64,000 bases of DNA, taken from the NCBI GenBank assembly GCA_900316305.1, contig ONCM01000002.1, positions 37,967 through 101,966 on the forward strand, written 5' to 3'. This DNA comes from an uncultured Bacteroidales bacterium. Its GTDB lineage: Bacteria > Bacteroidota > Bacteroidia > Bacteroidales > WCHB1-69. The position numbers were made by a program, and so were the translations under genes. This document shows, in pieces, positions 25,585 to 64,000 of this stretch (position 1 is its first letter; the number at the start of each line of letters is the position of its first letter). Below the pieces are notes generated by a model. That model saw nothing but the letters and a program-made list of their open reading frames with translations. It ran no database searches and was not told the DNA's origin.

Positions 25585-25674
25585 TTTCCATTAGCAAGAC
25601 GAGCATAACGCTTCGTTTTATTCAATAAAAATTCCGCCAACCCTGCGGCAAAAAACGCCTTCGGGTTGACGGGG

Positions 25675-25682: not shown

Positions 25683-25716
25683 CAATTAATTTGAATAATC
25701 GACTAGAAAAGAATCG

Positions 25717-29252: not shown

Positions 29253-29435
29253 ATGAAATGGAATGAACTGAAGAAACTAGCAGAAGCGAACGGTTGGTAT
29301 CTCCTGAAACACGGGAAAAAAAACGATGTTTATGTGCATCCGACGAATAGAAATCGTCTGATCATTGGAAGGCATGGTTCTGAGGAGGTGCCGGTAGGGA
29401 CCTACACGAAACTTCTAAAGCAGATGGGATTCTAA
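29253..29435 (+). CDS. hicA: HicA-family type II toxin
   Basis: 60 aa. MKWNELKKLAEANGWYLLKHGKKNDVYVHP...GRHGSEEVPVGTYTKLLKQ matches the HicA/YcfA pattern. Confidence 0.8.
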   Translation: MKWNELKKLAEANGWYLLKHGKKNDVYVHPTNRNRLIIGRHGSEEVPVGTYTKLLKQMGF

Positions 29436-29465
29436 AATTAATTGAGACAAACAAACAGTAAAGAT

Positions 29466-29867
29466 ATGAGAACTACAGCATTGATAGAAAAGGGGAAGGA
29501 TGGGCAATACACCATCTATACACCGGACATGCAATCCACCATTATCGGGACTGGTGATACAGTGCCCGAAGCCAAAGCTGATTTTGAGAATACAATGAAA
29601 GAAGTTCTGGAAACCTATGAAGAGACAGGGGAACCAATTCCTGAAGAGTTGAAAAACATCACATTCGAGTACAAATACGACCTCCCGTCGTTCTTACACT
29701 GCTACAACTACCTTAATATGACCAAATTGGCCGATCGGGCGGGTATCAACCCATCGTTGATGCGCCAGTACAAAAGAGGACAGTATGTATCGGAGAAGCA
29801 GGCATCGAAGATACAGGAGGCCGTTCACAAAATCGGTCGTGAGTTGCTGGCAATGCGGTTGGTGTAG
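29466..29867 (+). CDS. hicB: HicB-family antitoxin with C-terminal HTH
   Basis: ATG at 29466 (MRTTALIEKGKDGQYTIYTPDM). Has an EAKADFENTMKEVLE block and a C-terminal HTH-like LADRAGINPSLMRQYKRGQ. Confidence 0.7.
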   Translation: MRTTALIEKGKDGQYTIYTPDMQSTIIGTGDTVPEAKADFENTMKEVLETYEETGEPIPEELKNITFEYKYDLPSFLHCYNYLNMTKLADRAGINPSLMRQYKRGQYVSEKQASKIQEAVHKIGRELLAMRLV

Positions 29868-29910
29868 TTAGAAGTTAGAAGTTAGTAGTTAGTAGTTAGC
29901 AGTTAGTAGG
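29865..29910. repeat. TTAGAAG/TTAGTAG/TTAGCAG heptamer repeat beginning at the stop codon
   Basis: tagttagaagttagaagttagtagttagtagttagcagttagtagg. Confidence 0.9.
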
Positions 29911-30013
29911 CAGCGCTTCCCTGTATCGCAAAATCTGAAACTGCTAATTACTAATTGCCAACTGTTTCAATGAGCCTTGAAACCTGAGCCTTGAAACTTG
30001 AAACAATTCAACA

Positions 30014-50105: not shown

Positions 50106-51896
50106 TCAGAATCTCCATTGGAAACCTAAGACAACGGCGCGTCTGTTGGCCCTGTTTTCCTCAATCCAATAGTTCTGTTGGTCTTCCGATTCGTAGTTGG
50201 TTGTAATAGTCTGATCCAGCAGGTCGCGTCCTTCTAAGAACAAAGAGAATTGCTTGAAGTCTTTTTGGGCGCGTACATTGAGCACAAACCTTGATTTCTG
50301 GGAGGAATAATAAGTGATTGTCTTGCTTTTGTAGAAAGCGTCCGCCGCAACACTCCACCCCTTTCCCAAATGAGCTGCGATATCGGCGTTGAGGCGCCAG
50401 TCAAAGGCTTTTTTGACGGGGGATTCAACATTCTTGGGCGTGAGCTGCAACAGATTAAAAACGACAACGGCATTAGCCTCGATAATCTTTCCTCGCCAGC
50501 CTAACTTCTGCGAAAAACTGACAGAACGGTTGTCTGACGAGTTTACCCAGTGGAAAACCTTAAACCGGTATCCATCAATGTCCTCGTATTCCCAAGTCTT
50601 GTCTATCGCGTTGTCCACACAGGTGTAGGCGACGGAAGACTGGGCGAAGAAACGGGACTGTTTGAATTCGTATTCAAGTGCATAGCGACGCGTATGTGTC
50701 GATAAGAGTTGGTCATTGCCTTTGTATATTTGGTCAATGTAGTCAACGGTCCTGTCGTACCAACAGAGTTTGTCGTAATCCGGGTGTTTGACACTCATCT
50801 GGTTGGTCAGGCTAAGGGAGTGCTTTGGTGATATGGTCCATTTCACCTTGGCTCTGCCTACCGGAGCCACATCGTTGAGGCTCATGGGATGGTGACAGGT
50901 GTCGTCATTGATGCGGCGGGCATAAATATCAGCGCCGTAGTCGGCATGAATCTCGATACTCTTCCAGCTGAAATCAGCAGCTAAAAAAGGTTCAACACTC
51001 ACACCCCAGAAATTGAATCTGTCCTGTAAGTTGATGGAATCCTGTAAAATAGCAGTTTCATCGCCTAAAATGAATCGGGTGGTGCTTCTATCGTCCTCAA
51101 GGACGTTCGTTGCCGCAAGGCGAACGCCGGGGGTGAGATACAGCTTGGCCGTTTTGTCTATAAGGGTGTTTTTCAAAAAAATGTCCCCATCTATATTGAA
51201 AGTGTTTCTGCCGGATGTGCTCAAATAGCTCCAGGAGCTGTCTATGTGCTCAAGATCCCCGCTTTTAGACGTCGTCCATGTATCCCTCGTGTTGTTGTGG
51301 ATCATTTGGGCCGCGAGGGAGCTTTGCAATATATTACGCCCCTCGTTAAAACTTCGGTAGGTTTTAAATCCGGTCCCCACTTTGTGCTCATCCATGGCAT
51401 GAATATCATTGTAATAAGTGTATTGGTCCCATGTTTCAAGGTCGCCTTTTCCTCGCAGGGTATGCAAGTTGTCCCTGTTATTGGCATATTGGTACAGAAT
51501 CCATGCCGAGTATCTCCTGTCCTTGGATGGTGTCCAAAGAAAATCCGATTTCAGATTGCTGGTAAGAGGATTTGTGGTGTTATATTTATAGAGAGCGCTA
51601 ATCTTATTGCCATTGAAATCAAAACGGACTTTGTCGGTGGTATTCGGTTCCCATTTCCCGTTTATCGAGGTATTCCAGCTGAAATAGTCTGTCTTGTAGT
51701 GCAGTTGGAACTCTCCTTGCAACAATCCATGATACATAGGGGCATAACCGTTGGCGATGTTGCCTTGCAGGCCTCCAAAACCGCCAAGCAGGTCCACACT
51801 TCCCGACCATTGCGCCCGTAATGGGATACACCATGCCAAAAGGGCGATCCCGAGGAGATAACGGAGAGGTTTATTCGCGATTTTATGTAACATCAT
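50106..51896 (-). CDS. outer-membrane beta-barrel protein (TonB-dependent-receptor-barrel-like, no obvious plug)
   Basis: ATG at 51896 gives MMLHKIANKPLRYLLGIALLAWCIPLRAQ. Alternating beta-strand pattern. C-terminal ...VVLGFQWRF has the terminal aromatic typical of OMPs. Confidence 0.65.
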   Translation of the reverse strand: MMLHKIANKPLRYLLGIALLAWCIPLRAQWSGSVDLLGGFGGLQGNIANGYAPMYHGLLQGEFQLHYKTDYFSWNTSINGKWEPNTTDKVRFDFNGNKISALYKYNTTNPLTSNLKSDFLWTPSKDRRYSAWILYQYANNRDNLHTLRGKGDLETWDQYTYYNDIHAMDEHKVGTGFKTYRSFNEGRNILQSSLAAQMIHNNTRDTWTTSKSGDLEHIDSSWSYLSTSGRNTFNIDGDIFLKNTLIDKTAKLYLTPGVRLAATNVLEDDRSTTRFILGDETAILQDSINLQDRFNFWGVSVEPFLAADFSWKSIEIHADYGADIYARRINDDTCHHPMSLNDVAPVGRAKVKWTISPKHSLSLTNQMSVKHPDYDKLCWYDRTVDYIDQIYKGNDQLLSTHTRRYALEYEFKQSRFFAQSSVAYTCVDNAIDKTWEYEDIDGYRFKVFHWVNSSDNRSVSFSQKLGWRGKIIEANAVVVFNLLQLTPKNVESPVKKAFDWRLNADIAAHLGKGWSVAADAFYKSKTITYYSSQKSRFVLNVRAQKDFKQFSLFLEGRDLLDQTITTNYESEDQQNYWIEENRANRRAVVLGFQWRF

Positions 51897-52074
51897 AAAT
51901 TTTATTTTTCGTGACAGGCAAGTCATATTGCTTTTCTTTTTTTAAGACAACTATTTGAAATCCAAGACAAAGGTGCGTCTTTCGCCCTTGCTTATACTTT
52001 ATTCAAGGATTCTGCAAAAATACGATTTTTTTTGAAATAAAATGTATCTTTGCAGCTTCAAATGACATTTGGAT

Positions 52075-53277
52075 ATGAAAAGGATTACGACAATGCTCTC
52101 CCTCTTGCTCCTCGCGCACGTCATCTTCGCGCAGAAACCGCCGCGTCTTGTGCCGGTGGAGATCACGGAGATGGTGTCGGTGGACAGCATTGAAGACCAA
52201 GATACTAAGCCTAACCTTTGTCCGGAATGGGTGGACACGAACATTCGGTTCACCGCCTGTTTGAATGCGGATGGGGTGGTGGGATATCTGCTTGAGCCTA
52301 AGGATGATTCATATCTCAAACAAATGGCTTTTGGGCATTTCGATATGGACTCGAGATGTTGTGGTGCAGGGTTGCGGGAAGTGCAGCGGGCGGAAGTCTT
52401 GTTTGCGAAAGTCATGGACTTGCGGGTTGATTCGGCGCAGCGCATTCATAGGGCGTTCACAGCCCCTCGGTTTTATCAATATGATCGGCAGTATGTTTTC
52501 TTTCTGAATTCGGATGGAGATACCTGCGTGCATATCAATTGCATCCTGCGGGAAGAATCGATTTGTTCTTCGCGTCCCGCGCGTTACTATATTGTCGTTT
52601 GTGATGGGGACGACAGTTACTGGACTGCGGACCTGAATCTCACCCGTGGCAGGCTCCTTTCGTGTCACGTCAATGGCCCGAATCTCTATTTTGTGAATGG
52701 TCGCAACAACGAACCTCGCGGCATCTATTCAGAGACAATCTTTGAGCGCTCGTGGCCTCTGGCGGAAAAAATCTGTAGTTTCGACCAGTTACCGAATGCC
52801 GTGCAACAGGCGGTGCTGTTGCAGATGGATACCACCCAAGTGAGTGCTTATCAGCATTTTTCTCCGAAATATATGTGGAAAATCTACCAAAAGAAGAACG
52901 GAAAAGAGGTTGTCAGAAGGAAACGGTACAAGTCGGGCAACTACTACCGTGTCTATATGGACACCCTTTGCCGTGGTTACGATGTGAATGGACAGATGCT
53001 ATATGTGGGAACTGAGCGATATCTAGGCTGGATTGACCGTTCGTACTTGAGTCATATCCCCGTCATAAATATGATGATGGCCGAGATAACGCGGGATTTA
53101 TCCGCCCGTGGTCGCGATTTTGCAAAATATGGCGGTATCCGCTGGGCGGAGCAGGTCGGCGACCGCTACGTGCTAGCGGTCGTGTACAGGCCGCCGGTCC
53201 ACGCCGATGCCCTGATTCTGTACTACACTTTCGACCACAATGGTCGTATAGAGGGGGTGACGTTCGAGGATTGGTAG
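52075..53277 (+). CDS. secreted hypothetical protein
   Basis: ATG at 52075 (MKRITTMLSLLLLAHVIFAQ) lies downstream of a tatctttg box at 52045-52052. No family recognised. Confidence 0.55.
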   Translation: MKRITTMLSLLLLAHVIFAQKPPRLVPVEITEMVSVDSIEDQDTKPNLCPEWVDTNIRFTACLNADGVVGYLLEPKDDSYLKQMAFGHFDMDSRCCGAGLREVQRAEVLFAKVMDLRVDSAQRIHRAFTAPRFYQYDRQYVFFLNSDGDTCVHINCILREESICSSRPARYYIVVCDGDDSYWTADLNLTRGRLLSCHVNGPNLYFVNGRNNEPRGIYSETIFERSWPLAEKICSFDQLPNAVQQAVLLQMDTTQVSAYQHFSPKYMWKIYQKKNGKEVVRRKRYKSGNYYRVYMDTLCRGYDVNGQMLYVGTERYLGWIDRSYLSHIPVINMMMAEITRDLSARGRDFAKYGGIRWAEQVGDRYVLAVVYRPPVHADALILYYTFDHNGRIEGVTFEDW

Positions 53278-53304
53278 TAGAGCCGCGCTGCAGCACGGCT
53301 CTAC
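53277..53304. repeat. palindrome family member (GTAGAGCCGCGCTGCAGCACGGCTCTAC)
   Basis: Its first base is the last base of the stop codon at 53275-53277. Imperfect centre. Confidence 0.7.
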
Positions 53305-53487
53305 ATCTGCGCGGTTCTACAAAAATAATTCCGATTGTTACACCCAAACAAAAAAAATTTTACTTTTGCCAATTCAAACTCTAATTATCAAACTCTCTAC
53401 GATTCCCTAGCTTCAATAACCAATAACCTATAACCAATAACCTTTTTAAACCGATAACCAATTATTATTCACCAAAATTAATACATT

Positions 53488-54180
53488 ATGACAAAAAAAT
53501 TATTCGCTGAACTGATTGGAACGTTCGTTCTCACCCTCCTGGGCTGCGGAACGGCTATGTTCTTGGGTTGTGCCACTCCCGCTGGCGTGGTGGGCACGGC
53601 TATCGCTTTCGGTCTCACCGTGGTTGCCATGGCCTACACCATCGGCGGCATCACGGGTTGCCACATCAACCCGGCCATCACCTTCGCAGTGGCGCTTTCC
53701 GGCCGCATGACCTGGAAAGAGGCCTGCATCTACTGGATCGGCCAGTTCATCGGCGGTATCCTTGCCGGTGCTGTTCTGTTGGCACTCGTCAACATCGTGA
53801 CTCCCTCCGCTGAAGGCATCGCCGAAGGCATGATGGGTCTCGGTTGCAATGGCGTGGCTAACGCTGGCGGTGTTTGGGGCGCTTGCCTCGTGGAGATCAT
53901 CGCCACCTTCATCTTCGTGCTCGTGGTTCTCGGTACCACCGACAGCAAGCTCGGCGCAGGCAACCTCGCCGGTCTGGCCATCGGTCTGACCCTGATCCTT
54001 GTCCACCTGGTCTGCATCAACCTCACCGGAACTTCCGTCAACCCGGCCCGTTCCTTCGGACCTGCATTGTTCGCTGGTGGTGAGGCTCTTGCCGATGTGT
54101 GGGTGTTCATCGTAGCTCCCATGATCGGTGCTGCCCTCTCCGCATTGGTGTGGAAGGGACTGGCATGCAACAAGGAATAA
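53488..54180 (+). CDS. aqpZ: aquaporin Z (MIP family channel)
   Basis: 230 aa. Two NPA boxes (HINPAITF, SVNPARSF) and six TM helices. Confidence 0.92.
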   Translation: MTKKLFAELIGTFVLTLLGCGTAMFLGCATPAGVVGTAIAFGLTVVAMAYTIGGITGCHINPAITFAVALSGRMTWKEACIYWIGQFIGGILAGAVLLALVNIVTPSAEGIAEGMMGLGCNGVANAGGVWGACLVEIIATFIFVLVVLGTTDSKLGAGNLAGLAIGLTLILVHLVCINLTGTSVNPARSFGPALFAGGEALADVWVFIVAPMIGAALSALVWKGLACNKE

Positions 54181-54207
54181 TCACGACATCTGTCGGTTTC
54201 CCCATTC

Positions 54208-54235
54208 GTAGAGACGCAAAATTTTGCGTCTCTAC
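54208..54235. repeat. 28-bp perfect palindrome, identical to 3776-3803
   Basis: gtagagacgcaaaattttgcgtctctac lies 28 nt after the aqpZ stop. Confidence 0.85.
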
Positions 54236-54367
54236 AATGTCTTTAAACAGGCAAGTATTGATAACAACGGTTCATCCAAATTGGGTGGACCGCTTTCCAT
54301 TGATGAATATGGTGAAAACGTTATGGAAAAATTATATCTTTGCGCTTCGTTTTTAAAAATGTGAATT

Positions 54368-55132
54368 ATGGCAAAAGAAACCAAGACGGCAAGTTGGGAG
54401 GAAATTGAACCCAAGTACAGACAACGGATTAAACGGTTGCACACGTTGAACAATGTGGCGTTCTGGGTGACGCTCGCATTGGCCGTGTTCAATGTGGGGA
54501 TGTTGATTTTTCGCGGCAACAGCACCTGGGCGGAAGTCGCATTCCGCGGTGGCCAGTATTTGGCCATGTTGCTGGTACTCAAACTGCCCAGCGTCCTGCG
54601 GATGCGCTTCAAAGTAGAAGTTCCCGCCCTGCTCTCCATCGTCATCGTCCTCTTCTGCTTCTGTGCTTTGGTGCTCGGCGACGGTCTCGACTTCTACGGC
54701 AAATTCCCCTGGTGGGACTCCGTACTGCACGGTTTTTCAGGCGTTCTCCTCTCCATGATTGCGTTGTGGCTGATCCACGTCATCATGGCGGGCAACGACA
54801 AGGCCATCTACTTCAACAAGTACTTTTTGGCCCTTTTCTTAGTGATGTTTTCTTTGGGTATGGGCGCCTGCTGGGAGATCATCGAATACACCTACGATAG
54901 CATCAGCGGCACGAACACCCAGCAATTTATGGCTTCGACTACGGGTTCCCTCTTCACCGCCGAGGACATCCCGTTGTGCGGTCATGCTGCCCTGCGCGAC
55001 ACGATGACCGACCTGATCCTCGACCTCGTCGGTTCCCTGTTGGTGGCTATCTTCGGCATCTTCTACCACGACAAAGCAATCGAGAAATATGACATCCTTA
55101 TTAAGATGATGAAGATTGATAATGAAGAATGA
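54368..55132 (+). CDS. polytopic membrane protein of unknown function
   Basis: 254 aa with 6-7 hydrophobic helices. A -7 box tatctttg lies at 54335-54342. The C-terminal codons run into the AATTATG repeat. Confidence 0.6.
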   Translation: MAKETKTASWEEIEPKYRQRIKRLHTLNNVAFWVTLALAVFNVGMLIFRGNSTWAEVAFRGGQYLAMLLVLKLPSVLRMRFKVEVPALLSIVIVLFCFCALVLGDGLDFYGKFPWWDSVLHGFSGVLLSMIALWLIHVIMAGNDKAIYFNKYFLALFLVMFSLGMGACWEIIEYTYDSISGTNTQQFMASTTGSLFTAEDIPLCGHAALRDTMTDLILDLVGSLLVAIFGIFYHDKAIEKYDILIKMMKIDNEE

Positions 55133-55273
55133 AGAATTATGAATTATGAATTATGAATTATGAATGAAGGTCGTAAGTGTTAGAAACGGTGTTCGTAGCC
55201 GAGTTTTATGCAGGCACCGAAGCGAGGGGGCGAGGGACTTAGCCCTGGATAGGCAACACCATCGTGATAGACC

Positions 55274-55783
55274 TTATCGAACCCCACTGATACGTTTGTG
55301 TTGACCCCTTGTGTTGACCCCAATTGTGAGGATGTCATTGGCAGTCAACGGGATGCGGCCTCCGAGTTCGAGCACTGTTTCGCCTATGTTAAAGCACTCT
55401 TTGGCATTTGCTGCCGTCCAAGCATTTAACCCGATGCCGAAGGAAAGGCCGCCGCGGGCGTAAAAGTGCCGTGTGTGGAATTCCATCTCAATTGGGATCC
55501 TCAGGTAATGGTAATGCTCGTTGTTCGCCGGTTTGAAAACACTTTCATAATCCAAACTGGTGTAGATTCCCCAAAATCGACTGAAGTCGTATCGGAAGCC
55601 CACTCCGCCGCCTGCTTGTATGTAGGTGTCCGACCAAAACAGGTAGCTGCACACACCTCCTGTGGCGTTCGCGGTAATGTTGAAGCCCTTGTATGTGTTT
55701 TCAGATGTTGTCGTTTGTGCATTCGCCTGTATGGAAAGTGCGAACACTGCGACGAGTAGGGGGTAATAAATTTTCTTTATCAT
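55274..55783 (-). CDS. small outer-membrane beta-barrel protein (OMP_b-brl/OmpW-like)
   Basis: 169 aa. Signal MIKKIYYPLLVAVFALSIQANAQ. Alternating strand pattern. A -7 box caaagata lies at 55815-55822. Confidence 0.6.
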   Translation of the reverse strand: MIKKIYYPLLVAVFALSIQANAQTTTSENTYKGFNITANATGGVCSYLFWSDTYIQAGGGVGFRYDFSRFWGIYTSLDYESVFKPANNEHYHYLRIPIEMEFHTRHFYARGGLSFGIGLNAWTAANAKECFNIGETVLELGGRIPLTANDILTIGVNTRGQHKRISGVR

Positions 55784-56043
55784 GATATGCTTTTTTGATG
55801 AAAGAATGACGCGGCAAAGATATAAAATCCATCTATATAAATATGACGCAGAATTTTCAAAAGGTTACAATGATTATCGTAGATTTCATTCAGTCAAATT
55901 GTTATGTGATGAATGAAAGGATATTTTTGTAAAATATCGAACTCTGGCACTCCGAAAAGTTGTAAAATATCGCAGTCTGATTTCGGTACTTGAATTTGTG
56001 TATTTTTGCGGATTGATTTCGAATAACACCAAATATCACCACA

Positions 56044-56388
56044 ATGATCAAATACAGCCAAGACATCCGCGTTGAAACCGTGGAAAACAGCGGCAACATT
56101 GAAGGCCGTATCAGTAAGAACATCATCCTCACGCCGGCGGAGATGCTGGAGCGCGCCTCGATGTTCAACATCATCACCCTCCCGTCCGGAAGCCGCATCA
56201 AGGAGCATCCGCACATCGAGGATGCGGAGATTTACTACATCTTGGAGGGCGAGGCCGAGGTCACCGACAACGGCCGCACCGCCATCATGCACGCGGGCGA
56301 CGTGATGTTCACCGGCAACGGCGACCGGCATAGTATCGCAAACCACAGCGGGAAGGACGTCCGCTTCCTTGCCTGCATCTTGAAATAG
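56044..56388 (+). CDS. cupin domain protein
   Basis: 114 aa. GSRIKEHPHIEDAEIYYILEG...GD...GDRHSIAN is a two-motif cupin signature. A -7 box tatttttg lies at 56001-56008. Confidence 0.8.
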   Translation: MIKYSQDIRVETVENSGNIEGRISKNIILTPAEMLERASMFNIITLPSGSRIKEHPHIEDAEIYYILEGEAEVTDNGRTAIMHAGDVMFTGNGDRHSIANHSGKDVRFLACILK

Positions 56389-56461
56389 ACTATTGACTTT
56401 GACATTGACTTTGACTGCTAACTACTAACTGCTAACTTCTAACCCATAAATACCCCTCAAC

Positions 56462-58159
56462 ATGAAAAAACTAACAACCCTAATCCTCCTCCTCACGGCA
56501 ATCGCTCCCGCTTTTGCCTGCACCAACCTCATCGTTGGCAAGAAAGCCTCGAAGGATGGCAGCGTGATGTGTACCTACAACTGCGACGGCTTCGGCTTCT
56601 CCGGGTCGCTGTTCCACAGTCCGGCGGGACGGCACGCGCCCAACGAGAAAATCGCCATCCACGGGTGGGGACCCGCGCACGAAGGACAGTTCGTGACGCA
56701 GGTGGAATATACCTACAACGTCGTCGGGCTGATGAACGAGCGGCAGGTCACCATCGTGGAGACCACCTTCGACGGACGATTGGAACTCCAGAACCGCGAG
56801 GGACTGCTCGACTACTTCTCGCTGATGCGGCTCGCCCTCCAACGCAGCGCCAACGCCCGTGAGGCCATTAAATGCATGGCTGAGCTGGTGGAAGAGTACG
56901 GCTATAACAGCAGCGGCGAGAGCATCACCATCTGCGACCCCAACGAGGCGTGGATCATGGAGATTATCGGCAAAGGAAAGGATAGGAAAGGGGCCGTCTG
57001 GGTCGCCCTGCGCATCCCCGACGACTGCATCTGCGCCCACGCCAACCTCAGCCGCATCCGCCAATTCCCGCAGGAACAAAAAAAATCCTACAAATCCATC
57101 ACTGACAAACATTTGCAATACATCACCCGTCCCGAGGTCGAATGCGTCTATGCCGCCGATGTCGTCAGCTTCGCCCGCGAGATGGGCTATTTCAGTGGTA
57201 AGGATGCGGACTTTTCCTTCCGCGATGCCTACTGTCCCATCGACTTCGAGAACGTGCGCTATGCCGACGCCCGCGTTTGGAGCTTCTTCCGCCACCACTA
57301 TGACGAGGCCGAGATGGACAAATACCTGCCGTATCTCAACGGCGAGTTCGACCAGTGCGATCATCTGCCGCTGTGGATCAAACCCGATGCACCGCTGTCC
57401 CTCAGAGACTTGCAGGAGGATATGCGCGACCATTTCGAGAACACCCCGTTGGACATGACTACCGACATGACCGCCGGTCCGTGGGGAATGCCCATCCGTC
57501 CGCTGCCGATGCACTTTCGCGATACGAACGGTGTGAGCTACTTCCGCGAAAGACCTATTGCCACGCAGCAGAGCGGCTTCACGATGACCTGCCAGATGCG
57601 CTCGTGGCTGCCCGACGACGTGGGCGGTGTCACCTGGTTCAACTGCGACGACGCCGACATGGTGGCCTACGTGCCGCTCTACTGCTGCATCACGCAGGTG
57701 CCCGACTGCTTCCGTCCGGAGAACAACCCCCGCGCGGAATTCAGCTTCGAGTCGGCCTTCTGGATGAACAACTGGGTGGCCAACATGGTCTATCCGCGCT
57801 ACTCGATGATGATCGGCGATCTCCGCGAGGCCCAGCGCGAGTTGGAGGACTACTACTTCGCCGATCAGGACAGCGTGCTGAAAGCGGTGGAGAACATGAC
57901 CCCCGCCGACCGTCGCGACTATCTCAATAAGAAGAGCATCGCCTACGCTGACAAGATGATGAAGCATTGGGACAAGTTAGCCAAATACCTGATTGTCAAA
58001 TACAACGACCAAGTGGTGAAAAAGGTGGACAAAGACGGCAATTTCCAGCGTTGGGGATACGAGACGCCCGGTTACGATATCCAGTTCATCAACGCCATCG
58101 GTCCCGCCACAGGGGATCGGTATAAATTGAAGGAGGTGATTGAGAGGAGAGAGCGGTAA
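56462..58159 (+). CDS. C69 family dipeptidase
   Basis: 565 aa. The signal peptide ends AFA, followed by the nucleophile Cys in CTNLIVGKKASKDGSV. Confidence 0.88.
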   Translation: MKKLTTLILLLTAIAPAFACTNLIVGKKASKDGSVMCTYNCDGFGFSGSLFHSPAGRHAPNEKIAIHGWGPAHEGQFVTQVEYTYNVVGLMNERQVTIVETTFDGRLELQNREGLLDYFSLMRLALQRSANAREAIKCMAELVEEYGYNSSGESITICDPNEAWIMEIIGKGKDRKGAVWVALRIPDDCICAHANLSRIRQFPQEQKKSYKSITDKHLQYITRPEVECVYAADVVSFAREMGYFSGKDADFSFRDAYCPIDFENVRYADARVWSFFRHHYDEAEMDKYLPYLNGEFDQCDHLPLWIKPDAPLSLRDLQEDMRDHFENTPLDMTTDMTAGPWGMPIRPLPMHFRDTNGVSYFRERPIATQQSGFTMTCQMRSWLPDDVGGVTWFNCDDADMVAYVPLYCCITQVPDCFRPENNPRAEFSFESAFWMNNWVANMVYPRYSMMIGDLREAQRELEDYYFADQDSVLKAVENMTPADRRDYLNKKSIAYADKMMKHWDKLAKYLIVKYNDQVVKKVDKDGNFQRWGYETPGYDIQFINAIGPATGDRYKLKEVIERRER

Positions 58160-58168
58160 CCACATGAT

Positions 58169-58196
58169 GTAGAGACGCGGCGCGCCGCGTCTCTAC
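58169..58196. repeat. 28-bp perfect palindrome GTAGAGACGCGGCGCGCCGCGTCTCTAC
   Basis: Lies 10 nt after the dipeptidase stop. Same arms as 3776 and 54208, with a different centre. Confidence 0.85.
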
Positions 58197-58211
58197 GAGA
58201 ATTGCATCACA

Positions 58212-58645
58212 TTATAACAGGATTATGCAGGCAATCTGCCACATGGTGGGTTCGAAGTCGAAATAATAGACAGCGTCGCCCCAACGGTCTTTCTGCCGTA
58301 GGGTTTGCCCGTCGAGGTAGTAGAGCGGAGTGCCCCATCGGTCTTTCTGGCGGATGGTCTGTCCATCGAAGTAGAGTAGGGGGTCGCCCCAGCGGTCCTT
58401 CTGTCGCACCGTCTGGCCGTCGATGTAGAGCAGTGCTTGTCCCCACCGGTCCTTCTGCCGAACCTGTCGGGAGGCCGCATCGTACCACAGCAGTTTCTCA
58501 CCCCAGCGGTCCTTTTGCTGGATGGTGTTCTCCTGCATGTAATACAGTTTCGCGCCCCACCGATCCTTCTGATAGACGGTTTGTGCGTGGGCCATGACGG
58601 CGAAAAGCGTGATGACAGCCATAATGGCGGATTCTCGTTTCTTCA
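58212..58645 (-). CDS. small secreted protein made of six ~17-aa QKDRWG repeats
   Basis: MKKRESAIMAVITLFAVMAHAQ, then 6 units of (R/Q)QKDRWGxxLLYxDGQTx. The ORF-track start at 58694 is rejected because caaagata (58651-58658) sits just upstream of ATG 58645. Confidence 0.65.
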
Positions 58646-58805
58646 TGCGGCAAAGATACATTTTTTGAACGACAACTGGTACAACGCGGGACAACTTTAA
58701 AATGCTGTAAGAGTAAATTTTTACAATTAATACTTAATAAATCGAAAGAAAATTTATTTTAAATATGTGATTTGACGAATCCGAAAAATTAGTATTATTG
58801 CGGCC

Positions 58806-59315
58806 ATGAAAACGGAAGATGCTATTTTTGAGGATTTAGAAACAAGATGCTGTAAATTAAAATATTACAGAGGATCGCTAATGCAATTTGCGAACGACTT
58901 GCTGACGAAGGGACGCGGCGATGGGGAAGTATGTCGGATATGTGAAATATCTCCGGTAATCATCAATGACATGAAAACGGCTGGATTGGAGTTGCACTCT
59001 AATGACATTATTGTCACGCAACGACAGATCTTCAAGTATCGGAATCACCCCAAAACGACCAAAGGCGCTAACCTCCCTGTGGAAGACTATGGAATTATCG
59101 AGGCGGCGCTGAAGAATTCCACAAACATATACGAAGACACGGTCCAGAAGCACCTAGTGTATGTGTATACACATCCTTATCGTGAAGACCGATTGATGAA
59201 GGTGGTGGTTGAGACGAATTTTAGAAGCCATGGGACTGTGGTCAACCTGGCAAAGTCGTGGGGGATCGTGCAACATGAAAACATGCGGGGTGGGCAATTC
59301 CGCCTTGTCAGATGA
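58806..59315 (+). CDS. hypothetical protein (weak resemblance to phage/conjugative-element PBECR-type nuclease domains)
   Basis: 169-aa ORF in AT-rich DNA. The pattern ...IIVTQRQIFKYRNHP...DYGIIEAALKN...LVYVYTH...MKVVVET... recalls Barnase-EndoU-ColicinE5/D-RelE-like modules. The function is not established. Confidence 0.5.
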   Translation: MKTEDAIFEDLETRCCKLKYYRGSLMQFANDLLTKGRGDGEVCRICEISPVIINDMKTAGLELHSNDIIVTQRQIFKYRNHPKTTKGANLPVEDYGIIEAALKNSTNIYEDTVQKHLVYVYTHPYREDRLMKVVVETNFRSHGTVVNLAKSWGIVQHENMRGGQFRLVR

Positions 59316-59346
59316 AAAAAAAGAGGATGCGAAGCACCCTCTTTTG
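59314..59346. terminator. bidirectional rho-independent terminator
   Basis: aaaaaaaAGAGGATGCgaaGCACCCTCTtttg serves the plus-strand ORF ending at 59315 and the minus-strand tRNA-like RNA. Confidence 0.75.
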
Positions 59347-59428
59347 TACTGGCGGAGGGAGTCGAACCCTCAATATGGTGGCTTGCAGTCAAGTCACCCC
59401 CGCTACCATGTTGCGACCATCAACCAAT
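59347..59428 (-). ncRNA. tRNA-like small RNA (T-arm, D-arm and acceptor-like pairing, but no canonical anticodon arm); alternatively a tRNA pseudogene or att remnant
   Basis: On the minus strand there is a perfect T-arm, GAGGG-TTCGACT-CCCTC. The 3' CGCCAGT-A pairs 6/7 with the 5' ATTGGTT. D-arm-like TCGC-AACATGGTA-GCGG. The anticodon position holds a 22-nt hairpin GGTGaCTTG-ACTG-CAAGcCACC. It has its own -7 box and terminator. Confidence 0.5.
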
Positions 59429-59438
59429 GTTTCAACGG

Positions 59439-59446
59439 CAAAAATA
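59439..59446 (-). promoter_or_regulatory. -7 box (TATTTTTG on minus strand) of the tRNA-like RNA
   Basis: caaaaata lies 11 nt upstream of the proposed RNA 5' end. Confidence 0.5.
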
Positions 59447-59566
59447 CACTTTTTTTAATATCCCAACATTGTTCGATAAATTTTTTTGAAACCGCAAAAC
59501 ATTTGCAATTGACCGTTGACCGATTGGGGAAAACATCTTCCATCGAAACATCTCTGCTATCGTCCT

Positions 59567-59610
59567 GTGTATATTCTGCGTATAGCGTGTGTATAGCGTG
59601 TGGTGCTCAA
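59567..59610. repeat. 11-bp-period tandem repeat block 0 (GTGTATAGCGT-like, 4 units)
   Basis: gtgtatattct gcgtatagcgt gtgtatagcgt gtggtgctcaa. Confidence 0.8.
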
Positions 59611-59629
59611 AATGCACAAGACACACCCA

Positions 59630-59657
59630 GGCGACAACCTAAATCAGTCGCAAATGA
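59630..59657 (+). repeat. 28-nt direct repeat, copy a
   Basis: ggcgacaacctaaatcagtcgcaaatga is identical at 59852-59879. A degenerate third copy (gtgacaacctgaattagcgaatca) lies at about 59696-59719. Confidence 0.85.
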
Positions 59658-59726
59658 TTAACCCTGTCAACTCAGATCAGTCGTAAGGCACAAAAGTGAC
59701 AACCTGAATTAGCGAATCACACAATT

Positions 59727-59792
59727 TCCAAGTATCTTTCAAGTAACTATCAAGTAACTTCCAAGTAACTTCCAAGTAACTTCCAACTCTCC
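59727..59792. repeat. 11-bp tandem repeat block 1 (TCCAAGTAACT, 6 units)
   Basis: tccaagtatct ttcaagtaact atcaagtaact tccaagtaact tccaagtaact tccaactctcc. Confidence 0.9.
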
Positions 59793-59796
59793 GCGC

Positions 59797-59851
59797 GTAG
59801 GGCTATCGTGCGGCTATCGTAGGGCTAGCGTTCGGATAGCGTGTGAATACC
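59797..59851. repeat. 11-bp tandem repeat block 2 (GTAGGGCTATC-like, 5 units)
   Basis: gtagggctatc gtgcggctatc gtagggctagc gttcggatagc gtgtgaatacc. Confidence 0.85.
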
Positions 59852-59879
59852 GGCGACAACCTAAATCAGTCGCAAATGA
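59852..59879 (+). repeat. 28-nt direct repeat, copy b
   Basis: Identical to 59630-59657. Confidence 0.85.
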
Positions 59880-59896
59880 AGAGGGCAAGAAGACTC

Positions 59897-59940
59897 CAAG
59901 AATGGTCCTAGAATGGTCTAAGAAGAGTCCTAGAAGGGTG
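59897..59940. repeat. 11-bp tandem repeat block 3 (CTAGAATGGTC-like, 4 units)
   Basis: caagaatggtc ctagaatggtc taagaagagtc ctagaagggtg. Confidence 0.8.
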
Positions 59941-60035
59941 AGATGACTGTCAGCCGCAGTTTTTTCTCGCCTTTGCAATACATGTTCTGAAAAATGCTAT
60001 TTTTGCAAAAGTATTTGCCAAAATAGTTGAATAGT

Positions 60036-61046
60036 ATGCCAAATTCCAAAAATGCAGATGTTCGCATCAAGGTCATTGACCGCTGTTTGAGTGACAAAAA
60101 CCGCAAGTATTCGATGGCGGAGATGATGGAATTATGCAATGAGGAATTGGAACTACATGACTTTCCTCCCGTGTCGGCCATGAACACCATTCGCGGCGAC
60201 ATAGAACAGATTCAACGAATATACGCTCCGAATGCGGATGTGGAAAGTTTCCGGGAGGGACGTAACATCCGCTATCACTATGCCGATCCCGACTTCTCCA
60301 TCTACAGGCCGCTGTTGAAGCCCGAGGAGACCGCGCAGCTCATCCAGACACTCTGCTTGCTGAAACGGTTCAAAGGGATGCCGCAGTTCGACTGGATCAC
60401 CGAGATTTCCGACCGCTTGGGTGCTTCGTTGAAAATCGATGAGGTATCCACGGACGAGGTGGTCGGGTTTGACGAAAACATGGATTTGGAAGGGCTGGAC
60501 CACTTCACGCCGTTGTTCAACGCCATCAGCGAAAAACGGACATTGTGCATCACCTACAAAAGCTTCAAGCAGGACAAGGAGGTGGAATACGTGGTCTATC
60601 CCTATTATCTGAAACAGTACAACAAGCGGTGGTTCCTGATTGCCAGGAATGAAGGTTATGAGACGTTGACCAACTACGCCCTCGACCGTATTCTGGGCAT
60701 CAAAGAGACGGATGTGCCGTTCCAACCCGCCGACATCAACTTCGCCGACTATTTTGACGAGATGATCGGGGTGTCCAAAGATTCAAACACGGAGCCCACG
60801 CTCGTCAAGCTGTGGGTCTCCCCGGTCTCGTGGCCCTACGTCCGCACCAAGCCCCTCCATGGCACGCAAAAGAAGGCCGCAGAAGATGCCACCGGCGCCG
60901 TCATCACCATCGAAGTGTATCTGAACTACGAGCTGGAACAACTGATCCTGTCCTTTGGCGAAAACATGGAAGTGCTTGAACCGAAATGGTTTAGGGAGAA
61001 GATAAAGACGAGGATAGGGAAGGGGTTGGAGAGGTATGGGGAATAG
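60036..61046 (+). CDS. WYL-domain transcriptional regulator (HTH + WYL + C-terminal domain)
   Basis: ATG at 60036, downstream of a tatttttg box at 59998-60005. N-terminal HTH-like VIDRCLSDKNRKYSMAEMMELC. WYL hallmark VVYPYYLKQYNKRWFLIARNE. Confidence 0.8.
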   Translation: MPNSKNADVRIKVIDRCLSDKNRKYSMAEMMELCNEELELHDFPPVSAMNTIRGDIEQIQRIYAPNADVESFREGRNIRYHYADPDFSIYRPLLKPEETAQLIQTLCLLKRFKGMPQFDWITEISDRLGASLKIDEVSTDEVVGFDENMDLEGLDHFTPLFNAISEKRTLCITYKSFKQDKEVEYVVYPYYLKQYNKRWFLIARNEGYETLTNYALDRILGIKETDVPFQPADINFADYFDEMIGVSKDSNTEPTLVKLWVSPVSWPYVRTKPLHGTQKKAAEDATGAVITIEVYLNYELEQLILSFGENMEVLEPKWFREKIKTRIGKGLERYGE

Positions 61047-61119
61047 GTTCAGTATGAGTGAACGTGAAAGTTGTATTTTTGCCAGCAGAAAATTGAGAGA
61101 CAAACAAGAAACGGAAACT

Positions 61120-63588
61120 ATGGTGAATCGTATGGACAAGGACAAAATGGATCAGGTAAGAAAATGTCTTTGGATGGTAATGAGTACATTCAGAGGTATG
61201 AACAAAAATGCGACCTTATTTGTAGCCACGCTCCTCTATTTTAGAAAGCTGAACGGTTTGAGTGTTATAAGCGAGAACAATATGGTCAAAAACGAGAAAG
61301 GTTTATGTCATGCTGAACCTTTAGAACGTCTATGCTATGATCATGACATCGTTGAAAATGAGAAGAATGAAAAATTTAGAAGTTTGTTAGAAAGAACTCT
61401 TTCTGAATTTGAAGAATATTTTAAAGGGCATCTTGTCCCTGTGGTAGAGTTTGTGCATGCTTTGGTTGAATATGAGTTCACAGAAAAAGAATTATTGAGC
61501 ATTTACGATTTAGCAATTGATGATTCTTTGCAGATTGGCGAATCTTACATACCTAAAGAGTTGTCCGAATTGGTAGAATTTCTTGTTGATAAGGATTCAA
61601 AAAAAATTCTTGATCCTTTTGGTGGCAGAATGGTGTTTGCAACGACACTAATGGATAAAAGTTTTATTTCTTTTGAGACGGACGAATGGAATTGGGAGAT
61701 TGGAATGTTTCGTTTGGCAATAGCTGGTGTTTTAGAGCATAATAAGAATATTTATTTGGAAGGGTTTCTTAGTGATGTGAATGACAAGTTTGATGCAATT
61801 GTGACCATGCCACCGTTTGGAATAACGGGCGCTTCCCACGAATATCTGGATGAGTGGGCATTGGGCCGTTTCGACAAACTCACAAACGAACACGGACAAC
61901 TTGTCACAATTGTACCGATGTCTGTTTTGTTCAGAGGCAGTAAGATGCAAGTGGATGGTCCTAATACTAAAATCACCACAATTCGCAGAGACATCACTAA
62001 AAACAATTGGTTGGAATCGGTTATTTATTTGCCCTACAATATATTTCCAACAACAGGCGTGGCCGCAGTCGTCGTTGTTCTAAGGAAAAACAGAAAGGAG
62101 AACGACAAAGTACGTTTCATTGATGCATCCGACTGTTTCACCACTAAAAATAGGCTGAATGTTATTGATTTAGAAACAATCATCAGCCGTTACGACAACT
62201 GTGAGAATTTAATTTCCTCAGATGAGATTCTCAGAAACAATTCTTCATGGGATCTTCGATGGTATATTGAACAGAAAAAAATTGTTTTCGGGGAGGGTTA
62301 TACCGTAGTGAAGGTTTGCGATGTGATGACGCAGCTCCCAATTGTAAGCAAATTTGAAGACAAATCGGGTTATGTTGTTAACGTCGGAGATTTGTCCGAT
62401 GACGTTATCAACTATGAAAAAAAAACAGAGATGTTTACAAAAGGGGATAATTTGGAAAGAACGTCAAAAGTTGTTGAGCCTGTTATTCTGCTTTCAATGA
62501 TTCGTTCCCCCAAACCTACCTATTGTGAGGCCTCGGAAAGCAATCCTATCTTTATTAAGAATGATGTGGTGGCTTATAGAATCACAAATAGTTCCATCTA
62601 TCCGGGCTTCTTGTGCATGGAGTTGGCGAAAAGACTTAAGGCCTATACTGGTGCCATCATTCCACGACTTTCCAAATATCAGGTTCTGAACGCACTCATT
62701 GAGTTCCCCTCTCTTGACGAACAAAGAAGCTTTGTCGAACAAAAGAACTTGTTCGAAGAAGCGAAAAAGACAGCCCAAATGGCTAAAGTGAATGAGTTAG
62801 GGCTTCGAGAGGTGATCGAATCTATGAAAAATGACTATTCGAAAAGCATTCATGCGAGAAAACATGCTATCTCTCAAAACCTTTCCGCTTTTTCTGCTCT
62901 TTGGAATACTTTATATAGATTTAAGAATCAAAATGATGGCCGATTGTTCGATACCGATATCGTAAGTAAAAGCTATAATAGATCTGTGGCTGACGTGTTC
63001 GATGCTCTTAACGAAAGACTTAAAGTGATACTGCTTCAAGCTGATCATATAGCAGACGATGAGCCTGAATGGGGTCAAACCGAAGAAATCGAGCCTGATG
63101 CTTTTATTGAAGAATTTATTAAAACCCATAGTGACATTAGGTTTGAATATATTCACGAAGGATATAACGATGAAGAATATAATAACACGCTTAAGGAGAT
63201 AGAAATGGAATATTGGGCTAAAATAGTGTTCCCTCCCAAAGCATTGTTGAGAGTTTTTGAAAACATTGTTTCAAATGCAGTTGTTCATGGTTTTACCGAT
63301 CCGGATAGAAAAGATTATAAGATTCTAATATCTCAACAGCTTGTTGATGTTAATTGTTGGATTATTACTGTTTCCAATAATGGAGAATCCATTTCAGATG
63401 GGTTTGATGTTCAAAAAACTTTTGAATATGGATATACAACCAAGTCATCGGAAGGACATTCCGGAATAGGCGCATATCAAATAGATGAATTGATGAAGAA
63501 ATTTGGCGGTTCAGTTGAAATTATTTCAACACCTGAAGATTTATATACTGTAACTTATGTTTTGAAATTCAATGGAGTGAATGTTTAG
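61120..63588 (+). CDS. fusion protein: HsdM-like N6-adenine methyltransferase fold with degenerate catalytic motif, HsdS-type target-recognition domain, and histidine-kinase-like H-box with a GHKL (HATPase_c) domain
   Basis: A tatttttg box at 61074-61081 favours ATG 61120; the ORF is open from 61036. GESYIPKEL, ILDPFGG (61606-61626), TMPPF in place of NPPF/Y (61804-61818), LPYNIFPTTGVAAVVVVLRK. TRD ends IEFPSLDEQRSF. H-box-like SIHARKHAISQNL. N-box FENIVSNAVVHG. G-box GHSGIGAYQIDELMKKFGG. Confidence 0.7.
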   Translation: MVNRMDKDKMDQVRKCLWMVMSTFRGMNKNATLFVATLLYFRKLNGLSVISENNMVKNEKGLCHAEPLERLCYDHDIVENEKNEKFRSLLERTLSEFEEYFKGHLVPVVEFVHALVEYEFTEKELLSIYDLAIDDSLQIGESYIPKELSELVEFLVDKDSKKILDPFGGRMVFATTLMDKSFISFETDEWNWEIGMFRLAIAGVLEHNKNIYLEGFLSDVNDKFDAIVTMPPFGITGASHEYLDEWALGRFDKLTNEHGQLVTIVPMSVLFRGSKMQVDGPNTKITTIRRDITKNNWLESVIYLPYNIFPTTGVAAVVVVLRKNRKENDKVRFIDASDCFTTKNRLNVIDLETIISRYDNCENLISSDEILRNNSSWDLRWYIEQKKIVFGEGYTVVKVCDVMTQLPIVSKFEDKSGYVVNVGDLSDDVINYEKKTEMFTKGDNLERTSKVVEPVILLSMIRSPKPTYCEASESNPIFIKNDVVAYRITNSSIYPGFLCMELAKRLKAYTGAIIPRLSKYQVLNALIEFPSLDEQRSFVEQKNLFEEAKKTAQMAKVNELGLREVIESMKNDYSKSIHARKHAISQNLSAFSALWNTLYRFKNQNDGRLFDTDIVSKSYNRSVADVFDALNERLKVILLQADHIADDEPEWGQTEEIEPDAFIEEFIKTHSDIRFEYIHEGYNDEEYNNTLKEIEMEYWAKIVFPPKALLRVFENIVSNAVVHGFTDPDRKDYKILISQQLVDVNCWIITVSNNGESISDGFDVQKTFEYGYTTKSSEGHSGIGAYQIDELMKKFGGSVEIISTPEDLYTVTYVLKFNGVNV

Positions 63589-63602
63589 ACAAAATAATTG
63601 AT

Positions 63603-64000
63603 ATGGAAGAATTACAGGTACTTTGGGTTGAAGACAAAACGGAATTACATGAACCTTATTCAACAGAAGCTTATTATTATAAGATTAAGCTACATCCTTT
63701 TACTTGCTGGGAAAAAGCGAAACATGATCTCATAGCTAATTATGACGACTACTCTGCAATTATACTTGATGCAAAGTGTAAGATAAGAGAGGAAGATCCT
63801 GATGATGCCTTAGATTTTCTTCCTATAGTTATCAAGGAATTAAGCAATTATGCTATAGAAAAAAGACGGACTATCCCTTGGTTCATTTTGTCAGCAGGTG
63901 GTGCTGAAGTTGGCAGATTGAATTGGGTGAAAAAGCATAGAATGGATTGGGATGATTGGGAAAAAGATTTTTATAGTAAAAATATTGATCGAGAAACGTT
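63603..64000 (+). CDS. receiver (REC)-like domain protein, 3' end outside window
   Basis: ATG lies 14 nt after the preceding stop and the frame stays open to the window end. MEELQVLWVEDK (acidic pair), SAIILDAKC (candidate phospho-Asp), WFILSAGG (conserved S/T position). Confidence 0.55.
   Translation, partial: MEELQVLWVEDKTELHEPYSTEAYYYKIKLHPFTCWEKAKHDLIANYDDYSAIILDAKCKIREEDPDDALDFLPIVIKELSNYAIEKRRTIPWFILSAGGAEVGRLNWVKKHRMDWDDWEKDFYSKNIDRET

Follow-up and report, generated by a model that had tools for sequence, protein, structure and literature searches.

The last 4 kb of a 64,000-nucleotide stretch of DNA from an uncultured Bacteroidales bacterium (GenBank assembly GCA_900316305.1, contig ONCM01000002.1, positions 37,967–101,966, forward strand; hereafter the window) carries a three-gene cassette that belongs to a widespread Bacteroidota family without an earlier description. 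The cassette consists of a WYL regulator gene (gene 1), a gene for a fusion of a methylase that is probably catalytically dead, a target-recognition domain (TRD) and a histidine kinase (gene 2), and a gene for a receiver protein (gene 3). We lean towards regarding it as a self-contained immune module of the two-component type, under WYL control, that is found together with a type I restriction-modification operon; the defensive role is suggested by the genomic context. An earlier note, made from the sequence of the window, had described this architecture, and it was recovered with Pfam, PADLOC, a profile comparison with the kinase HK853 and Foldseek. The three open reading frames were confirmed as co-oriented genes, all on the plus strand at the end of the window (Table 1). 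The note had further placed them in an AT-rich patch, which is correct for genes 2 and 3 (GC content 0.37 and 0.36, respectively) and not for the WYL gene, which is host-like at 0.52 (flanks, 0.50).

The kinase half of gene 2 is defined by several profiles. Pfam assigns residues 707–816 to HATPase_c (2e-10, above cut-off) and gives an additional match to the AgrC-type HATPase_c_5 (4e-5), and the NCBIfam matches of this GHKL domain are the VanS and PrsK kinases. No match to Pfam HisKA was found on gene 2. A profile of the C-terminal half of the protein aligns with Thermotoga HK853 (PDB codes 2c2a/3dge) with E=1e-8 over both the dimerization and histidine phosphotransfer (DHp) domain and the catalytic ATP-binding (CA) domain. 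In this alignment, His582 falls on the phospho-accepting histidine of HK853 ('raRKHalkqpl' versus 'SHELRTPL') and the N, G1 and G2 boxes also line up, which upholds both the H-box-like motif that had been noticed in a coiled-coil region and the GHKL ATPase with N and G boxes. The residues Arg580-Lys581-His582, Asn715/Asn719/Ala720, Asn753-Asn754-Gly755 and Gly782/Gly784 are invariant, even at ~20% identity. From these comparisons, gene 2 is predicted to encode a genuine class I (HisKA-type) histidine kinase.

The input half of gene 2 resembles the methylase of a type I system. Pfam N6_Mtase covers residues 135–383 (1e-18), and the PDB sequence matches of this part are HsdM subunits (3lkd, 7vru and 7bst). 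All of the motifs quoted in the earlier note are present (DPFGG, TMPPF, FPSLDEQ, RKH, the N box and Gly782/Gly784). Compared with N6-adenine methyltransferases, the head has the S-adenosylmethionine (AdoMet) motif I and the N6_Mtase fold and lacks the (N/D)PP(F/Y/W) form of motif IV. In gamma-class N6-methylases, replacement of the motif IV Asn/Asp abolishes catalysis. The apparent loss of this residue in TMPPF, to which the note had drawn attention, extends through the family. The first alignment, of 20 homologues, shows motif I kept as xPFGG and, in 18 of them, a motif IV of the form T/S-x-PPF; in the family, the catalytic position is occupied by Met, Leu, Val, Phe, Ile, Ala, Thr or Cys. Thirteen of the 15 lineages that keep the PPF are without Asn/Asp, and a canonical motif IV is found in two only, at Maribacter locus L025 (NPPY) and at locus L078 (NPPF). 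The gene 2 head is thus probably a catalytically disabled methylase in which the AdoMet motif and the PPF base pocket are retained. Because more distant relatives have lost motifs I and IV entirely and still keep the kinase core, the conserved activity of the family is predicted to be that of the kinase rather than methyl transfer. Alternative starts of gene 2 are found at 61054, 7 nucleotides past the WYL stop codon, and at 61036; the start at 61054 is plausible since the N-terminal extension that it would add is conserved in the homologue P0004.

The head is followed by a single HsdS-like recognition domain. Eleven PADLOC Specificity_I models match residues ~410–556 (E from 6.5e-6 to 0.07), hhalign places residues 463–554 on residues 68–168 of HsdS, including the start of the P-S-L-x-E-Q helix, and a purpose-built hidden Markov model (HMM) of HsdS matches gene 2 homologues at 7e-12, in agreement with the earlier proposal of an HsdS-type TRD that ends in FPSLDEQ. 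Pfam Methylase_S is without a match on gene 2 itself and has a precomputed one on the distant homologue P0019. The hypervariability expected of an HsdS TRD is not seen in the gene 2 family, where the TRD-like part is the most conserved segment (mean pairwise identity of 0.59, compared to 0.48 for the methylase and 0.43–0.53 for the kinase parts). Because this is the opposite of real HsdS, a fixed ligand, for example a DNA-mimic anti-restriction protein, may suit the conserved TRD no less than the reading of specific DNA sequences would, and the DNA-sensing role proposed in the note is putative. A specificity shared between the gene 2 TRD and that of the adjacent HsdS was also considered and was rejected, the TRDs being dissimilar. 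With one TRD and one conserved helix, gene 2 could form a homodimer that mimics the M2S1 core of a type I enzyme, with the HsdS helix running on into the DHp helix.

Gene 3 starts 14 nucleotides past the gene 2 stop codon and encodes 412 residues in full length, as read from locus L001. It has nothing above threshold in Pfam, PADLOC, NCBIfam or the PDB sequences, and Pfam Response_reg in particular is without a match on the window fragment or the long form of the protein, the short form reaching 12.7 bits (E 0.15, cut-off 30.2). An AlphaFold model was obtained for P0021, a full-length homologue with 95% identity, using a 53-sequence alignment (predicted local distance difference test score, pLDDT, 87.6). 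Foldseek matched residues 1–141 of this model to the PDB receiver of PorX (8.8e-6), and to those of PhoB, KdpE, PmrA and ArlR with target TM-scores of 0.71–0.78 and root mean square deviations of ~3.0–3.5 Å. The receiver residues are Glu10-Asp11, Asp56 (codon 63768–63770), Ser97 (consensus Thr) and Lys126; among 53 homologues, Asp56 and Lys126 are invariant, Asp11 is nearly invariant, and position 97 is Ser or Thr. The N-terminal part of gene 3 is therefore modeled as a REC domain with a (βα)5 fold, and the receiver-like protein seen in the earlier note is confirmed by fold, though not by Pfam.

Beyond the end of the window, gene 3 continues with a helical domain (residues 145–330) and a small β domain (residues 355–411). 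The helical domain has eight invariant residues (Arg200, Asn227, Gln230, Gly237, Asn271, Ser274, His275 and Ser296). A short form of the protein, with 315–316 residues, consists of the receiver and the helical domain without the β domain. Library scans detected no DNA-binding output domain, recognisable toxin domain or PNP domain in gene 3. The output of the cassette probably does not come from a further gene and most likely resides within gene 3, in its conserved C-terminal two thirds. The earlier note, which had expected any effector to lie beyond the window, was correct in that these two thirds fall past position 64000; a separate effector gene, however, is not the likely form.

The family is large. 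A full hmmsearch with gene 2 gave at least 1,746 representatives at 50% identity (E≤1e-30); the best 150 matches all have E<1e-119, and nearly all of them align as a single stretch over most of a protein of 700–880 residues. A word-indexed search had returned only 20 homologues of gene 2. More than 498 homologues were found for gene 3. The census of loci, analyzed with purpose-built HMMs, drew on 30 loci at which homologues had been found, on 80 loci from metagenomes for which gene 3 served as the seed, and on two genomes from GTDB (Paludibacter and Flavobacterium omnivorum). A GTDB scan seeded with the gene 2 alignment yielded true relatives at only two of nine loci because the derived peptide pattern was a generic methylase motif, and the metagenome scan seeded with gene 3 performed far better. 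The hosts are Bacteroidales of gut and rumen metagenomes, and Flavobacteriales.

Kinase and receiver genes are strictly linked. The kinase gene is directly upstream of the receiver gene wherever upstream sequence exists (105 instances, 79 clusters at 90%), and the two genes overlap or are only a few nucleotides apart. At loci L067 and L081, two kinase-receiver pairs are arranged in tandem behind one WYL gene. The two halves of gene 2 also differ in conservation in some members: P0005 and P0007 are 84–86% identical to the window protein over the methylase and TRD and 23–32% identical over the kinase half, and at the locus of P0007, which was the one examined, the partner is the short 316-residue form of the receiver. 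The kinase half thus appears from these alignments to be swapped as one module, together with the form of the receiver. Strict adjacency, tandem pairs and module exchange are signatures of a cognate kinase-regulator pair.

The loci fall into three clades according to the sensor head and the gene that follows the pair. Clade A, to which the window belongs, keeps x-PPF in the head. Of its 14 informative lineages, 11 have a co-oriented hsdM immediately downstream, compared to none of 40 lineages without PPF (Fisher p=4e-9, with lineages that are phylogenetically non-independent). These 11 are made up of ten full or partial genes and one remnant of 74 residues, which matches a full HsdM with 89% identity. 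The spacing between gene 3 and hsdM ranges from an overlap to 72 nucleotides in seven of nine measured loci; it is 260 nucleotides at L025 and ~400 nucleotides at L001, which here represents the window. Because the adjacent HsdM proteins come from different type I families, all with NPPF or NPPY, the link between clade A and restriction is not simple co-descent. In clade B, where the head is degenerate, a PIF1/RecD-like superfamily 1 helicase of ~685 residues is located downstream of the receiver gene on the same strand at 30 loci (Table 1), and a helicase of the same type is found on the opposite strand at L038. The helicase gene lies ~0.1–3 kb past the receiver gene and diverges along with the pair (40–97% identity); it may be a third component or a mobile-element marker. 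Clade C, also with a degenerate head, has no constant gene after gene 3, and its neighbors include AIPR, ShosA-like, UvrD-like and housekeeping genes. A universal link to type I restriction, which the first ten loci had suggested, was rejected when the 80-locus census limited it to the PPF-keeping clade.

In the close relatives of the window, the cassette is the head of a densely packed defence island. At L001, gene 3 is followed by a 44-residue HsdM_N-like fragment, an HsdM of 501 residues with NPPF, a SIR2-pAgo gene, HsdS, and PDC-M01A/B. The SIR2-pAgo gene (L001 15630–18779) encodes a 1049-residue SIR2-APAZ-pAgo fusion (PADLOC pAgo E=0) that is inserted between hsdM and hsdS, and the PDC-M01A/B pair (L001 19982–22469) is Septu-like. 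Locus L112, which is 98% identical to the 3' part of L001, has an Mrr_cat gene in place of the pAgo gene and continues with an AAA_21 gene pair, a 1110-residue HsdR and rmuC. The type I operon acts as a scaffold for embedded defence genes. A complete canonical hsdM-hsdS(-hsdR) operon with an intact NPPF is located directly downstream here and in most of the close relatives, so the lack of HsdR or any restriction enzyme reported in the earlier note was an effect of the window edge: hsdM and hsdS are on L001, and hsdR is on the related L112. Across the loci, the defence genes found as neighbors include the SIR2-pAgo fusion, PDC-M01A/B, GmrSD, AIPR, ShosA-like genes and KAP NTPase. No carriage of the cassette on plasmids was found.

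The restriction and defence block is bracketed by a 70-nucleotide element, which occurs just past gene 3 (L001 13854–13923) and again between hsdR and rmuC (L112 11096–11165) and is 100% identical between the two contigs. At L003, the cassette is followed directly by rmuC, which looks like a deletion of the restriction block by recombination between the 70-nucleotide copies; both L003 and L009 have lost the restriction genes and keep only remnants of hsdM. The cassette itself recombines as a unit of ~5.1 kb, from ~59970 to ~300 nucleotides beyond gene 3, that is common to the window lineage, L003 and L004. A three-gene cassette with hsdM-hsdS-hsdR is also present on L111, an 82-kb scaffold deposited as 'UNVERIFIED: Bacteriophage sp.' (GenBank MT835483.1). 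The phage label is likely mistaken, the scaffold being bacterial DNA or an island adjacent to a prophage.

Gene 1 encodes a WYL protein with a WCX domain (Pfam WYL 4e-16 and WCX 1e-11; PADLOC WYL 3e-31). Of the HTH-WYL regulator proposed in the earlier note, the WYL part is clear, whereas the N-terminal helix-turn-helix (HTH) was detected by no HMM. In nearly all loci where the sequence reaches far enough, the kinase gene has a WYL gene upstream. The protein is 96% identical among the window, L003 and L004, and its 90% cluster has 281 members. Between the WYL and kinase genes, 1–6 kb of other genes are present at L004 (6283–9904), L046, L049, L054, L089, L093, L095 and L109. The insert of L004 consists of three genes for proteins of 669, 281 and 258 residues, none of which has a PADLOC or NCBIfam match; the last is a DUF6339 protein. 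The WYL gene seems to head a variable cargo array.

Table 1. Features of the cassette in the window, and loci with the clade B helicase
Feature	Position	Strand	Basis
Gene 1, WYL-WCX regulator, 336 residues, presumed N-terminal HTH	60036–61046	+	Pfam, PADLOC
Gene 2, predicted sensor histidine kinase with restriction-enzyme-derived input, 822 residues	61120–63588	+	Pfam, PADLOC, motif and HK853 alignments
HsdM-like gamma-class N6-adenine methylase fold, gene 2 residues 135–385	61522–62274	+	Pfam N6_Mtase
Motif I, DPFGG, gene 2 residues 165–169	61612–61626	+	Sequence
Motif IV, TMPPF, without catalytic Asn/Asp, gene 2 residues 229–233	61804–61818	+	Sequence
Single HsdS-like TRD, gene 2 residues 395–535, ending in FPSLDEQ (529–535)	62302–62724	+	PADLOC, hhalign, HMM
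DHp-like helical region, invariant Arg580-Lys581-His582 (His582 codon 62863–62865)	62800–63216	+	HK853 profile alignment
GHKL catalytic ATP-binding domain, N715/N719/A720, NNG, G782/G784	63217–63585	+	Pfam, NCBIfam, HK853 alignment
Gene 3, predicted receiver domain, first 132 of 412 residues	63603–64000 (cut by window end)	+	AlphaFold/Foldseek of homologue, alignment
Palindrome with 13-nucleotide arms, CTATTTTTGCAAA-agta-TTTGCCAAAATAG	59997–60026		Candidate operator/promoter
Clade B helicase, downstream of receiver gene, same strand	L012, L013-15, L036, L040, L042, L043, L047, L051-54, L057, L059-61		
Clade B helicase (continued)	L063-65, L067, L071, L079-81, L084, L088, L093, L095, L097		

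The palindrome listed in Table 1 lies 10 nucleotides 5' of the WYL start codon, and a TAnnTTTG element of the Bacteroidetes type overlaps it. It lies inside the segment common to L003 and L004, whose left edge is near 59970–59977, and may be the operator and promoter of the cassette. This assignment is made with low confidence because the palindrome is only semi-conserved in L003 and L004 and is absent from distant loci.

Our interpretation of the cassette is as follows. Gene 2 would be a dimeric sensor kinase, with a head that is a covalent copy of the M–S core of a type I or M–S-fusion methylase, and gene 3 would be its cognate response regulator. On engagement of a ligand by the head, the coiled coil would switch the kinase on, His582 would be phosphorylated, and the phosphoryl group would be passed to Asp56 of gene 3. 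This would activate the C-terminal helical domain of gene 3, possibly a HEPN-like RNase, an output that would stop growth or destroy invader transcripts. The WYL protein would repress the operon until it is needed. Two triggers are considered about equally likely, a DNA mimic of the Ocr/ArdA type captured by the head as a decoy, or a non-self state of DNA methylation sensed through the PPF pocket. The conserved TRD, the dispensable catalysis, the adjacency to the protected system and the precedents of Ronin and PrrC (see below) speak for the DNA mimic. A phosphorelay-coupled decoy, in which a dead M2S copy lures anti-restriction proteins or reads DNA methylation and the kinase signals to an effector of new fold, is put forward as a tentative and rather doubtful possibility.

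Several observations weigh against an immune module tied to restriction. About three quarters of the lineages sampled with gene 3 are without an adjacent restriction system, so that such a system is not required. Since the block between the 70-nucleotide copies is located at a hotspot upstream of rmuC, the adjacency in the window lineage could also partly reflect a shared insertion site. The G1 box of gene 2 (63376–63384, residues 753–755) is NNG and never DxG in every member examined, which raises the question of its nucleotide preference or of an AgrC-like catalytic domain; AgrC-type kinases are likewise without the G1-box Asp. The C-terminal domain of gene 3, modeled alone (pLDDT 87.1), has no significant structural counterpart, the best Foldseek E being 0.2 against both PDB and BFVD. 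A resemblance of this domain to Pfam DUF4145 over the N-x-x-S-H helix is seen in 18 of 53 members and stays below the cut-off of 23.1 bits, with 17.3 bits as the highest score; the family consensus brings no gain (12.6 bits). The canonical HEPN arginine is missing as well, with Gly270 and Leu267 at the Arg positions and no Rx4-6H motif. Finally, everything past position 64000 is taken from L001, a contig from another sample that is 99.83% identical to positions 51107–64000 of the window.

DUF4145 is a divergent HEPN RNase domain, as found in RAZR (PMC3710099, PMC13017515). The G-N-x-x-S-H of gene 3 resembles the G-N-x-a-a-H of DUF4145 RNases such as RAZR/PD-T7-4, with an asparagine four residues before the histidine. 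Unlike these, gene 3 is below the Pfam threshold, is without the conserved arginine and has no significant Foldseek match to HEPN proteins (E 0.7–2.5 for its C-terminal domain against HEPN and Csm6). Proteins of the RAZR type assemble on phage proteins, whereas gene 3 would need phosphorylation of its fused receiver. A HEPN/DUF4145-like output is a lead and is treated only as such.

The kinase-receiver pair might instead regulate the neighboring type I system, as restriction alleviation or for safe establishment after transfer, without any immune effector. It would then be a type I counterpart of control by C proteins, in which the dead head reports unmodified host sites or free M–S complexes and phosphorylated gene 3 damps or licenses restriction. 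The operon-like spacing of hsdM behind the pair in 11 of 14 PPF-keeping lineages would suit such a role, as would a gene 3 without a recognisable toxin domain and the hsdM remnants left at L003 and L009 after loss of the restriction genes. However, ~40 lineages carry the pair without an adjacent restriction system, so the pair works without one. Moreover, no DNA-binding output domain was detected in gene 3, the cassette already has a WYL regulator of its own, and the gene 2 TRD is unlike the TRDs of the neighboring HsdS proteins and is conserved while those vary. We consider this explanation unlikely.

Less likely still is that the cassette serves gene regulation, as a two-component system of a housekeeping or epigenetic kind that reads DNA methylation and is unrelated to conflict with phages or plasmids. 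The parts, a kinase, a receiver and a transcription-factor-like WYL protein, are compatible with it, and some loci have metabolic neighbors, such as citrate synthase and TonB-dependent receptors. The GC content of genes 2 and 3, however, departs sharply from that of the flanks, the cassette is found in unrelated chromosomal contexts and repeatedly next to known defence genes, recombination within gene 2 is mosaic, and the cargo between the WYL and kinase genes is variable. That gene 2 is an active, unusual methyltransferase in an ordinary type I/IIG restriction-modification locus with an attached GHKL ATPase is highly improbable: it has the N6_Mtase match, motif I, the NPPY and NPPF of L025 and L078 and the nearby hsdS and hsdR in its favor, but the catalytic Asn/Asp is replaced in nearly all members, a neighboring gene separately encodes an HsdM that is complete and has NPPF, and the ATPase is a predicted histidine kinase with a DHp histidine and a dedicated receiver rather than of the MORC/MutL type.

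The immune-module reading was compared with known systems. The earlier note had not recognized the architecture as a described system, and this still holds: PADLOC 2.0 and NCBIfam 20.0 (June 2026) have no model of gene 3 or of the gene 2 fusion, and no description was found in the literature searched for this architecture and its analogues. In PADLOC, gene 2 is matched only by generic methylase, specificity and mad2 models and gene 3 by none, the presence of Dtc models in PADLOC 2.0.0 being unconfirmed. Among the predictions of DefensePredictor (PMC13092281) is a system with HATPase and REC domains, not validated, which may be the cassette or a different system.

In its predicted mode of action, the cassette resembles Detocs (DtcA, DtcB and DtcC), an anti-phage operon of a kinase and a receiver-effector, in which mutation of the kinase histidine or the receiver aspartate abolishes defence and the effector domain is interchangeable (bioRxiv 10.1101/2023.01.24.525353). 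Both have a histidine kinase encoded together with a receiver protein. The sensor of Detocs is TPR-based, whereas that of the cassette is a methylase and TRD; Detocs has a stand-alone buffer receiver, DtcB, whereas the cassette has no second receiver gene; and the usual Detocs effector is a PNP ATP nucleosidase, whereas no PNP domain was found in the cassette. Detocs is also without a WYL gene, which the cassette has, and without a link to restriction. Membership in Detocs was rejected on the sensor, the buffer protein and the effector.

In Ronin, HsdM/HsdS can serve as a decoy that anti-restriction proteins engage, and methylation is not needed for this (bioRxiv 10.1101/2023.04.06.535777). 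Like Ronin and PrrC/EcoprrI, the cassette reuses type I M and S parts as a sensor and is genetically tied to restriction loci. In those systems a suicide effector is fired when anti-restriction proteins appear, and a trigger of this kind is hypothesized for the cassette. Ronin differs in that intact and separate HsdM and HsdS sequester a 61-residue membrane toxin, RonA, without kinase, receiver or phosphotransfer, whereas the M and S parts of the cassette are fused, apparently disabled and wired to a kinase. The cassette has no gene for a small membrane protein like ronA, and hsdR, which is not part of Ronin, is present in related loci; membership in Ronin was rejected.

With BrxR of BREX and CapW of CBASS, the cassette shares a co-oriented WYL-WCX regulator as the first gene of the operon, and a palindrome at the putative promoter of this gene; the cargo is different, and a role of the cassette WYL protein in de-repression is a prediction. 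MADS (mad1-8), a defence operon, also combines a type I-like methylase with a specificity subunit and a kinase. Its methylase, however, is active and marks self DNA, and the mandatory MAD6-8 are absent from the cassette. The PADLOC mad2 match on the methylase part of gene 2 (9e-16) is generic methylase homology, because the neighboring true HsdM scores far better (7e-46), and membership in MADS was rejected.

Further features were noted outside the cassette. Just beyond its left boundary (~59970), positions 59580–59939 of the window contain four consecutive tandem-repeat arrays, each with a period of 11 bp (units GTATAGCGTGT, TTCCAAGTAAC ×5.5, GGCTAGCGTGC and CAAGAAGGGTC). Among them is a repeat of 19–23 nucleotides, CAACCTAAATCAGTCGCAA(ATGA), at 59635, 59668 and 59858. 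The period matches a helical turn and suggests a protein-binding array. Rfam and tRNA scans of 54–64 kb of the window, with the repeat arrays included in the Rfam scan, found no RNA genes. On the minus strand, positions 58212–58694 encode a 160-residue protein with a predicted signal peptide and ~8 copies of a ~16-residue repeat with the core QKDRWG, which is below threshold against Pfam Bflower_3 (six-fold β flower). Positions 23000–26000 and 29000–30000 are AT-rich (GC content 0.35–0.39 versus ~0.53) and may be other horizontally acquired segments.

To our knowledge, Detocs is the only characterized two-component defence system and Ronin the only bacterial decoy made from restriction components. 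The cassette would join the two principles, two-component defence and a restriction-derived decoy, and would supply both a new sensor, a dead methylase with a recognition domain, and a new effector fold. With three genes in ~5 kb it is compact and lends itself to simple tests. It bears on how type I restriction is protected against anti-restriction proteins, and hence on phage therapy and on gene transfer in Bacteroides. The split between PPF-keeping, restriction-linked members and degenerate, helicase-linked members is a natural experiment on the re-tooling of a sensor head. If the decoy reading is true, guard or decoy immunity would here be connected to two-component signalling for the first time. 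In Bacteroidota, those of gut and rumen communities among them, the cassette would then be a common second layer behind type I restriction, and in its sister clades the sensor head would have been re-tooled, with a PIF1/RecD-like helicase as the partner instead.

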